This document shows positions 4,474 through 7,641 of a stretch of 64,000 nt of DNA, piece by piece. The notes below the pieces were generated by a model. The model made no database searches and was not told where the DNA came from. It saw only the letters and a list, made by a program, of their open reading frames with translations. Each line of letters opens with the position of its first letter. The stretch's first letter is position 1. The stretch is taken from positions 1-64,000 of the forward strand of contig RDOC01000004.1 in the NCBI GenBank assembly GCA_011364985.1, given 5' to 3'. Made by a program: the position numbers and the translations under genes. This DNA comes from Candidatus Thorarchaeota archaeon. Lineage in GTDB: Archaea > Asgardarchaeota > Thorarchaeia > Thorarchaeales > Thorarchaeaceae.

Positions 4474-5503
4474 ATGTCTGGTGGGAAAAAAGGCAAGGTT
4501 GACCCTTACTATCAAAAAGACCCACCCAAGCGCGCCAGAGGAACAGATCCTCAGTCCCAGATGAAGAGTTACAAGAACGCCGTCAAGCCTTTGCGAATCG
4601 AGGTGGGGGCAAATGGTAAGAAGAAGTATGTCTACAGGTGTGAACACTGCGGGGAGGAGTTCAAGACTGACAAACGTAAGAAACACAGACGGGCATTTCA
4701 CGATAAGAAATGTCAATATGAGTGGCATAAGTACTGACAAGAGAAGGCAGAGTTTACCGATGAGCTAAGGTAAAAGTTCTCTCAAGCTCAAAAGAAGGTA
4801 TGGAAGACCCCTAAGGTTCGCGATAGAAGAATAAAGGGGATTCGTCGAGCGGCAAAAGATCCCAAATGGCTAAGGCGCCGGAAGAGAGCTGCTCAGCAAG
4901 TGGCAAGTCGACCTGAATGGAGAGAGAAGCAATCGAAAGCAAAGACCGGAAGATATGTACCAGTTCTTGTCGGCAGTACAGCATCTGCACGAACGTACAA
5001 GAAGCAATCGAAAGCAAAGACCGGAAGATATGTACCTCCGGAAGTAGGTCAAAAAATATCCAAGGCAAAAATGGGGTATCCCGTTTCCAAAGAAACAAGA
5101 AGAAAACTTTCCGAAGCTAATTAATAAGGGAGAGAGAAGTAGGTTTTGGAAGGGTGTTGTTTCAAGCAAAAAGCAGCGCTTCTATCGCAGCTGGAAATGG
5201 CGGATGCAAGCAGCCAGGGTAAAACGAAGAGATGACAACACCTGCCAAGCATGTGGATGGACAGAAAGAGAAGCAGGAGAACTTGGAGTTCATCATATCA
5301 AGCCGCTTGAAGACTGGGAGGGCAATCCTCATGACTATCCCGATGAGTTGCTTTGCACTCTATGTAAGGTATGTCACACCATATCCGAGGCCCAAGGAGG
5401 AGAAATGAAATGGCCAATCAATGGCAGAGGAGAGGATGTAAAGTATGAGAGACTGAATAATCCAGAATGGCGTCAATCTAGACTTCCGGAATTCAGCAGT
5501 TAA
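4474..5503 (+). pseudogene. Decayed Zn-finger/NUMOD3/HNH endonuclease
   Basis: ORFs 4474-4737 and 4900-5124 share a frame, split by TGA 4735 and TAA 4771. A TAAT duplication at 5118-5125 shifts the frame into the HNH part (RDDNTCQACG...VHHIKP...LCTLCKVCH). NUMOD3-like KISKAKMG..VSKETRRKLSEAN. Confidence 0.85.
4925..5036. repeat. Perfect 37-bp direct repeat flanking a 38-bp unique insert
   Basis: AGAAGCAATCGAAAGCAAAGACCGGAAGATATGTACC at 4925-4961 and 5000-5036; insert at 4962-4999. Confidence 0.97.
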
Positions 5504-7641
5504 AGCGTGTATCTATGTCTATCTAGGAACTCTTGACGTTTTGATTTGTTCCAGGTCGCAATAGACTGGGCGTACCCGGTCACTCTGCTAATGATATCCA
5601 CCCCAACACGTCCGCATTTTGGACAGGGAATCTTATCCAGATCTTCAATAGCAGCGAAACGAGCTTCACGCCAGTTGATACCCTCTTGATGCAAACAGGA
5701 CGGGCAGCTCAGTACATCTTTCGTGAAGGCCCAATACGCAGACAAGGTGTCCCTTGCAATCTTCATATTGAGAGCCCAGAGAGCATCAGGATCAGGATTT
5801 GCCTCGCCCAAGAAGATGTGAGTGAGTGCCCCGCCATCAAGATAGGGATGGAACATTCCTTCCTTCTTGATGCGCTCGCTCAAGGGAAGGTCAGCCCCAA
5901 CATAGAGGGCCGTTGAGTTCGTATAGTAGACATTGGGAGTCTCTCCCTTCAGATACTTCCGAATCCCGGTATATGCTTTGTAATCCTTGAGGGCCAACCG
6001 CCCTGCTGCACTCTCGGCTGGCGTTCTGGTCACTCCGAAATGGAGGCCAGTTTCATCTTGGAACTCCTCGGCTCGCTTCTTCAGATGCTTTAGCACCTTT
6101 ATGCCGAACTTCGTGCCCTCGCGTTCATGAAGCTCATGGTCCGTTTGAATCTTGGTCATCTCGGTGAAGCCTACGGTCCCTAGCAGGAATTCTCTCTTGC
6201 TCATGTCAATGAGCGGTTCGCCGTTGGGCTTTGGTTGGGTATAGAAGGGCACTGAGCCGGAGGCAATGAGTCGGTCCATGAGAGCCTTCTTCTCCAATAT
6301 GACCTGCTTCGATAGGTCAAGATATTCGTCTACCTTTGCAAAGAACCTGTCTTCATCGGCCCGGCCAATGTAGGCTGCACGTCCAAAGTTTGGAGTCACC
6401 ATCTGAGAGGCCCCGAAGACCATGTTCCCTGAGAGGAACTCCTCCATTTCTTCATCACTACTAGCAGTCCATAAATGAGAACAGCAGCTGCTGCAGCCGG
6501 CCTCTATCGTTGAGCGCCAGTTGAGGTAATTTTCGAAATAGGGTGAACCTCGTTCTGCAGTGAGTCTGGCTACCAATCTCCACGACTCGTCAAATTCGGG
6601 TTTCATGAACTCCTCCCGAAGTACGATATTTGGTTTCGGAAAGTTAAAGCCCTTCCCCTTCATATCACCATCAATCATGATTTCCATGAAGGCATTGAAG
6701 AATCTCTGAGCCTCGTCTTCGTAGTCAGCGTAAGTATCCCCATTTGTTTTGCCACCAGGAAGGATCGCAGGGACATCACGCATTATCTTTGGAATGCCTG
6801 GGGTAAGGTCTACACTGGAGAAGATGACCTGACCGCCTCGTGCAACGTACTGCTGTGTAAGCGTGAAAATGAGTTGCTGAGCAGCCTGCTTGATTTTCCT
6901 GTAAGGAAGACCTCTCATGTAGGGGGCGAGGAAGGTATTGTAGTAGAAGTAACCCTGACCACCTGCGAAAGAACTCTGTGCTGCAGCCAACCAGATAGCA
7001 GAATGATTCACCACAACGTTCAGGTGCTGAGCAGGGCCAGCTGAAGAAGAATGGAGACCGCCTAAACCATCGGGGGCAATTCCGAGCTGCAGCACCTGTC
7101 GCAGGTCCCATGTGGCACAGTAGTCCCTCGTGGAAAAATACTCACGGTCTTTGATGTAGATGTCTCCGCGCATATGAGCATCAGCAAGATGTGTCGGAAT
7201 TGATAGGTATGTGTGTTGTTCCATCACTTGATCGTGAACAAGCTTAGCAATAGTCTCAGGATTACGCATGAGATTGGCGTTGCTGGTGTGGTTGCTAGGA
7301 TCATGAATGAGAAGGTTCAGGTCGTACATAGGCACACCCACACGAGTATAGAGAATGCGAGCCTTCTCAAAGCCAAGCTCGGCTAAGACACTGTTGCACA
7401 TCTCCCGAATCAGAGGACCTGACAGAAACTTGATTCCTGATGCTGCAATCCGGTCCATCACCTTGAGAGCAACGAGCTGTGCATCTGCACGACCTAGTTG
7501 TGCCTCAAGGACAAGGCTATCGATTATGCGATCTACATCAAAGGGCTCAAGAGTACTGCTTGTAGTTCTGACTTTGGGCAGCTTCTTCTCTCGCGACTTC
7601 AAGTCCTTATAGGTTGCTATGGCATTGCGGATATCAGTCAT
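5500..7641 (-). CDS. nrdD: Anaerobic (class III) ribonucleoside-triphosphate reductase with ATP-cone
   Basis: N-terminal ATP-cone, TPAES, CPSC/CPKCG Zn site, RVTGY glycyl-radical motif. Confidence 0.95.
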   Translation of the reverse strand: MTDIRNAIATYKDLKSREKKLPKVRTTSSTLEPFDVDRIIDSLVLEAQLGRADAQLVALKVMDRIAASGIKFLSGPLIREMCNSVLAELGFEKARILYTRVGVPMYDLNLLIHDPSNHTSNANLMRNPETIAKLVHDQVMEQHTYLSIPTHLADAHMRGDIYIKDREYFSTRDYCATWDLRQVLQLGIAPDGLGGLHSSSAGPAQHLNVVVNHSAIWLAAAQSSFAGGQGYFYYNTFLAPYMRGLPYRKIKQAAQQLIFTLTQQYVARGGQVIFSSVDLTPGIPKIMRDVPAILPGGKTNGDTYADYEDEAQRFFNAFMEIMIDGDMKGKGFNFPKPNIVLREEFMKPEFDESWRLVARLTAERGSPYFENYLNWRSTIEAGCSSCCSHLWTASSDEEMEEFLSGNMVFGASQMVTPNFGRAAYIGRADEDRFFAKVDEYLDLSKQVILEKKALMDRLIASGSVPFYTQPKPNGEPLIDMSKREFLLGTVGFTEMTKIQTDHELHEREGTKFGIKVLKHLKKRAEEFQDETGLHFGVTRTPAESAAGRLALKDYKAYTGIRKYLKGETPNVYYTNSTALYVGADLPLSERIKKEGMFHPYLDGGALTHIFLGEANPDPDALWALNMKIARDTLSAYWAFTKDVLSCPSCLHQEGINWREARFAAIEDLDKIPCPKCGRVGVDIISRVTGYAQSIATWNKSKRQEFLDRHRYTL

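Follow-up and report, generated by a model that had tools for sequence, protein, structure and literature searches.

A spacer-length insert flanked by repeat-length duplicates in a homing-endonuclease pseudogene of an Asgard archaeon, probably left by off-target CRISPR integration

How does a piece of DNA with the dimensions of a CRISPR spacer, enclosed by two copies of a sequence with the dimensions of a CRISPR repeat, come to reside outside of any array? This question is raised by positions 4925-5036 of the window, the stretch of DNA analysed here, which comprises the initial 64 kb of contig C17 in a metagenome-assembled genome (MAG) of an uncultured Asgard archaeon that is 74% complete and extends over 1.70 Mb in 22 contigs. 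In this region, the left copy of a 37-nt target-site duplication or pseudo-repeat (4925-4961) is followed by an insert of 38 nt (4962-4999), which has no second copy in the window or the MAG, and by a right copy (5000-5036) that is 100% identical to the left one. The duplication measures exactly 37 nt because the bases outside the two copies differ. Its length equals that of the repeat in a CRISPR array located on the same contig at a distance of 4.3 kb from the 75-nt insertion, and the insert, a candidate ectopic spacer, falls into the 37-39 nt range of the native spacers. The initial annotation had described both a perfect 37-bp direct repeat with a unique 38-bp insert and a nearby array of 37-bp repeats and 37-39-bp spacers, which are confirmed in our analysis, and it had interpreted the unit as the fossil of an ectopic adaptation event. 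As the two 37-nt copies are identical, the event is recent and fossil is a poor word to describe it.

The array occupies positions 5-641 of the forward strand, or 5-715 if a degenerate repeat is included, and it contains nine 37-nt repeats that end in ATTGAAAG. The start-to-start spacing of these repeats of 74-76 nt corresponds to spacers of 37, 38 and 39 nt. Among the native spacers, these lengths occur three, four and three times, respectively, with 38 nt being the commonest. When we aligned the trailer, a tenth repeat of degenerate sequence became apparent at 679-715. It shows about 26/37 identities to the others, ends in GATTGAAAA and is preceded by a 37-nt spacer, both together filling positions 642-715; it therefore marks the trailer end of the array. 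The contig starts inside the array, whose leader end is unassembled. The last full repeat (605-641) carries an A24G variant, which is the form of the repeat found in a second array on contig C12. In a comparison with the MAG, the native spacers show partial matches at chance level only, involving 16-23 of their 37-39 nt. Among 400 genomes of the phylum, a single other one (G082) contains the repeat of contig C17, with three mismatches. In this genome, the trailer of the array is followed by a 432-aa open reading frame (L045, G082:C89:35-224 and 777-2075). The layout resembles that of positions 1262-2584 of the window and suggests that the array and its neighbouring open reading frame travel together.

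The unit itself resides in a free-standing homing-endonuclease gene of the HNH/NUMOD3 type, which extends over positions 4474-5503 of the forward strand and which has decayed into a pseudogene. If read in three frames, it contains a Zn-finger-like N-terminus, a basic region that includes a NUMOD3 motif, and an HNH domain (PF01844, 30.6 bits). The NUMOD3-like run noticed earlier is real (PF07460, 25.7 bits), and the HNH endonuclease gene is not intact, being interrupted by two in-frame stops (TGA at 4735-4737 and TAA at 4771-4773) and by a tandem duplication of TAAT (5118-5125) that causes a +4 frameshift ahead of the HNH domain. The two TAAT copies create a double TAA that parts the NUMOD3 region from the HNH domain, at a place where a homologue termed L014 reads through. 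At its end, the pseudogene converges on nrdD (5500-7641, reverse strand, PF13597), with the stops of both genes overlapping (5501-5503 and 5500-5502). No paralogue of the pseudogene was found in the MAG, and a DNA search of 60 relatives did not detect an HNH gene at this locus, where similarity starts only inside nrdD. At the protein level, the HNH family is patchy, with matches in 23 of 85 genomes of the taxonomic family, several of which contain internal stops. Free-standing homing-endonuclease genes typically go through a history of this kind. The Zn-finger N-terminus, the basic NUMOD3 region, the HNH domain and the scattered occurrence among relatives are thus all shared with other free-standing HNH/NUMOD3 genes, from which the copy described here differs in being dead and merely the landing site of the insert.

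The state of the gene in the absence of the insert is illustrated by its closest full-length homologue (L014, G075:C95, about 802-1880). This homologue stems from a different genus and matches the three parts of the gene in the same order, with identities of 42%, 41% and 54%. Across the site, the alignment with this homologue, which is only 41% identical, contains a single gap of exactly 25 residues and the homologue reads ...EKQSRAHKGKKRPPEVGRKV.... Since L014 is devoid of exactly these 25 codons, the 75 nt are an insertion, which substantiates the earlier proposal that the insert is foreign to the gene. The sum of 37 and 38 is a multiple of three, a coincidence to be expected in one of three cases. 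L014 is likewise a pseudogene and contains four stops within the HNH part, and the HNH family is decaying independently in different genera. Exact-protein look-ups did not retrieve other contigs containing the HNH part or nrdD, and close relatives were equally absent from the results of homology searches in which the middle segment and the HNH part served as queries.

The unit is also exceptional within its genome. We scanned all 22 contigs in two ways, for perfect direct repeats of at least 20 nt within 400 nt and for direct repeats of at least 30 nt with at most two mismatches and a period of 40-130. Outside of the two CRISPR arrays, these scans returned the unit at 4925-5036, three head-to-tail tandem repeats (on C11, on C15 and at C17:46154) and a pair on contig C22. 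The latter, a perfect pair of 78 nt (G000:C22:32230-32484), flanks a run of 99 N and constitutes a scaffolding artefact. The search for similar duplications that the initial annotation had called for thus leaves the unit as the single non-tandem repeat-insert-repeat structure, and as the single event of its kind, in the MAG. With one such structure in 1.7 Mb, there is therefore almost no look-elsewhere effect. The signature of a transposon or MITE is absent, with the insert being present in a single copy and with no inverted repeat at the site, and we know of no IS family that would produce a 37-nt duplication.

The structure was further compared with Logan contigs, an independent de Bruijn assembly of the source run from marine sediment, in which X1 and X2 are one data set. 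In this assembly, a 98-nt unitig covering positions 4932-5029 crosses both junctions at a depth of 11.5, the left contig ends at 4954 (depth 19.2), the right contig begins at 5007 (depth 18) and the node of the 37-nt repeat has a depth of 28.3. The shape of the graph is the one expected for a repeat-insert-repeat unit and the region does not contain any N. Hence, with both junctions found in independent contigs, the unit is not an artefact of assembly, which had been named as a concern at the outset. The insert node reaches about 0.6 of the depth of its flanks, and for the repeat node the factor is about 1.5 instead of 2. These values are not decisive, since they would fit a population where about 50% to two thirds of the cells carry the insert and equally a local dip in coverage of, by our estimate, about 2 SD. 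Given the ratio of insert to flank depth, there is a small chance that the insertion is still segregating in the sediment population. At the k of 31 used by Logan, an empty allele yields no new words and is thus invisible in the contigs, and the runs X3 and X5 do not cover the site.

Based on this geometry, on its uniqueness and on the empty site in the homologue, we propose that the 75 nt are probably the scar of a recent off-target full-site integration catalysed by the resident type I-D-like Cas1-Cas2. To our knowledge, Cas1-Cas2 is the sole enzyme that inserts DNA of spacer length and thereby duplicates a target of repeat length. In the proposed reaction, the 3'-OH ends of a 38-nt prespacer would attack opposite strands at positions that are 37 bp apart, a distance set by the integrase complex and equal to the length of its cognate repeat, and the subsequent repair of the gaps would copy the 37-nt target to both sides of the insert. 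The reaction would have taken place in an already dispensable homing-endonuclease pseudogene located 4.3 kb from the array, and as this gene was dead, the insertion would have been tolerated. In this proposal, we infer the enzyme as well as the origin and the orientation of the insert.

The resident system is encoded on contig C12 (L001, G000:C12:1-7051), where the 3' end of csc1 (cas5d) is followed by the cas3 helicase, cas6, csa1, a csa3-like gene, a gene encoding an HTH protein and a leader. Behind the leader, the contig contains three repeats that differ by one base from the repeat of C17, with the last one being four bases off. A colinear locus (L047, G075:C104), with identities of 35-69%, starts with cas1-cas2-cas4, followed by an 888-aa gene, a 205-aa gene, csc2 and csc1, and continues with cas3, cas6, csa1, csa3, HTH, a leader and 37-nt repeats. 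The resident system is assigned as type I-D-like since C12 is colinear with this locus. Contig C12 breaks inside csc1 and thus, judging by the arrangement in G075:C104, at the point where effector and adaptation genes would follow. A 540-aa double-HTH protein, csa1 and the csa3-like regulator are located between cas6 and the leader, an order that is kept in two genera of the family, and in G075 the repeats next to the cas locus are decaying. Neither a search with Pfam (to E<=10) nor tblastn with Cas1, Cas2 and Cas4 of G075 detected cas1 or cas2 in the 74%-complete MAG, where the Cas4 query was equally without match, and Cas1 and Cas2 were not found in 16 other genomes of the genus nor in G082, the second genome with the repeat. 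An examination of the presence of cas1 and cas2, as suggested in the initial annotation, has thus revealed a CRISPR-Cas locus on C12 but no cas1 or cas2 in the assembly, and it is solely from the colinear locus of another genus that we infer a resident cas1-cas2 pair.

The site of integration offers few features that would be recognised as a repeat or a leader. We have compared the target with the leader-repeat junction of C12 (…TTTCGACCGG preceding and GTCACAGAAG… following the junction) and related the outcome to random genomic sites. In minus orientation, the site reads …TACTTCCGGA before and GGTACATATC… after the junction, with the upstream ATATTTTTTGACC resembling ATATGTTTTCGACC of the leader. 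Exclusively in this orientation, the junction score ranks among the top 8% and the local alignment with the leader among the top 4% of random sites. The ungapped identity between target and junction (11-14/47) is at chance level, and a significant likeness of the target to the leader-repeat junction or to repeat motifs was not found. We thus regard the resemblance to leader and junction as a weak hint towards the orientation of the event rather than as evidence. Beyond this weak hint, there is no leader-like flank at the unit. The folding of the insert and the pseudo-repeat is not notable (0 kcal/mol in case of the pseudo-repeat), and other features of a functional array are equally absent, with the structure consisting of one unit, without hairpin and with a pseudo-repeat that is unrelated to the true repeat and whose end is devoid of ATTGAAAG, the end of true repeats. 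The description of the unit as a nascent array, proposed on first inspection, is thus not supported, and there is no sign of the unit working as an array.

The insert was searched for at several levels of stringency. The full 38-mer has no match in viral, metagenome and genome contig collections. Its central 22-mer is equally unmatched among metagenome and genome contigs, as are two 20-mers among viral contigs and the insert in 86 genomes of the family at up to three mismatches. The searches thus yielded no PAM, which in type I-D systems is GTN. Since three native spacers used as controls were likewise without match in the viral collection, the negative outcome of the protospacer search is uninformative. 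In summary, the ectopic adaptation by Cas1-Cas2 claimed in the initial annotation finds partial support in the geometry, the foreign character of the insert and the real junctions, and it is weakened by the failure to find cas1, cas2 and a protospacer, by a target likeness that is insignificant and by the event being a single one.

Explanations that do not involve any integrase have to be considered alongside this proposal. An artefact of assembly or sequencing might be suspected in a short-read MAG, given a contig that starts within a CRISPR array and a duplication at a scaffold gap on C22, but in light of the Logan unitig that spans both junctions, the expected graph and the absence of N, the chance of this being the case is close to negligible. 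Hardly more credible is a 75-nt tandem duplication generated by slippage, with a middle part that has later diverged, or an exchange between internal NUMOD-like repeats. Such processes would be conceivable in a protein that is repetitive and basic and in a gene that also contains the 4-nt tandem duplication at 5118-5125. However, the signature of a tandem duplication is absent, as the repeated part accounts for just 37 of the 75 nt, with the remainder being at chance identity. With 9-11/38 identities, the insert resembles its flanks only to the degree expected by chance, and slippage or tandem duplication does therefore not explain the unit, as the initial annotation had argued. The two copies are at the same time 100% identical, and divergence cannot be so uneven, which effectively refutes this scenario. 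The homologue L014 is, in addition, devoid of all 25 codons. We have assigned a higher, though still low, probability to a route that is independent of Cas1, where nicks on opposite strands, placed about 37 bp apart by a nuclease or in a repair intermediate, would be followed by fill-in and by the capture of a 38-nt filler, with the match in size being a coincidence or reflecting a common range. The absence of a detected integrase gene in the MAG and the genus and a target site that is not repeat-like would both be in line with such a route, which we nevertheless consider unlikely, since we know of no repair pathway that gives a fixed stagger of 37 nt together with a spacer-sized filler, and since the concurrent match of both lengths would amount to a coincidence of about 1-in-100 to 1-in-1000, as estimated from our scans with broad size priors.

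The reaction might alternatively have been catalysed by another integrase of the Cas1 family, either an Asgard aCas1 encoded near TnpB or a plasmid- or virus-borne Cas1-Cas2 with a 37-nt repeat. The MAG contains seven matches to TnpB, three of which are arranged head to head with giant open reading frames of 1253, 1268 and 1500 aa (L041-L043; G000:C17:133510-139598, C21:48703-54825 and C16:49013-55399), a layout that is equivalent to the one published for Asgard aCas1-TnpB elements (PMC10691335). However, Pfam finds neither Cas1 nor any other domain in the three giant open reading frames, the direct repeats flanking the TnpB elements do not exceed 12 nt and thus do not point to a 37-nt stagger, and aCas1 is a proposed transposase of kilobase-sized elements rather than of 38-nt fragments. 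As the match in size points to the resident array's own system, we regard the involvement of such another integrase as improbable. There is also a small chance that the scar originates not from canonical Cas1-Cas2 but from a hitherto undescribed integrase or repair pathway, which would write DNA of spacer size and duplicate targets of repeat size. Asgard Cas1 homologues, of which the genome may hold three copies, would be an example. If true, such a route could be a process giving birth to CRISPR arrays. Integration by the resident Cas1-Cas2 thus remains the reading that we favour.

In this reading, the scar is of the same kind as events described in other organisms. Off-array integration in vivo, leading to neo-CRISPR loci, was reported by Nivala, Shipman and Church (2018, Nat Microbiol 3:310), as conveyed by other texts (PMC6698737, PMC7054753, bioRxiv 10.1101/148544). 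The work was reportedly carried out in E. coli over-expressing Cas1-Cas2 of type I-E, with circumstantial natural cases in two other species (bioRxiv 10.1101/148544). The unit described here shares with these neo-CRISPR units the spacer-length insert, the repeat-length duplication and a site outside of the array. It differs in its source, an uncultured Asgard archaeon from the wild whose system is type I-D-like, and in consisting of a single unit of 37/38 nt, the type I-E unit being 28/33 nt. Further differences are the failure to find the enzyme in the assembly and a target without significant likeness to a leader-repeat junction. In vitro, Cas1-Cas2 from P. furiosus carries out full-site integration at non-CRISPR sites of plasmids that are exactly one repeat length apart, with one preferred off-target site being just 43% identical to the repeat (PMC6698737). 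Common to both cases are the archaeal origin, paired cuts on opposite strands at a distance of exactly one repeat length, irrespective of the overall sequence, and the sufficiency of a low identity to the repeat. In contrast, the preferred sites of P. furiosus retain bases conserved by position, with G or C at either end and a centre rich in A (PMC6698737), whereas in the target investigated here only one end is G:C, in agreement with G1 of the repeat, and a motif is not demonstrable. In Synechocystis, Cas1-Cas2 of type I-D is sufficient for integration, which at a leaderless repeat proceeds at a very low rate (PMC6607411). This system belongs to the same class of 37-nt repeats, and it differs in its canonical target, the leader-proximal repeat, which is here replaced by the coding DNA of a pseudogene.

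Collectively, our analysis has identified a probable natural counterpart of a process that was previously demonstrated in vitro and in E. coli cells over-expressing the integrase, and of which clean natural examples in print are few. Neither from Asgard archaea nor from systems resembling type I-D do we know of published off-array scars. As a lone case without enzyme and protospacer, the unit constitutes a data point and not a new principle. If it originates from Cas1-Cas2 as proposed, it would illustrate that each natural scar reads out the ruler of an integrase, which here would measure 37 bp, together with its tolerance for targets that are not repeats, and it would reveal a mutagenic cost of CRISPR adaptation that is visible mainly under relaxed selection, as in a pseudogene.
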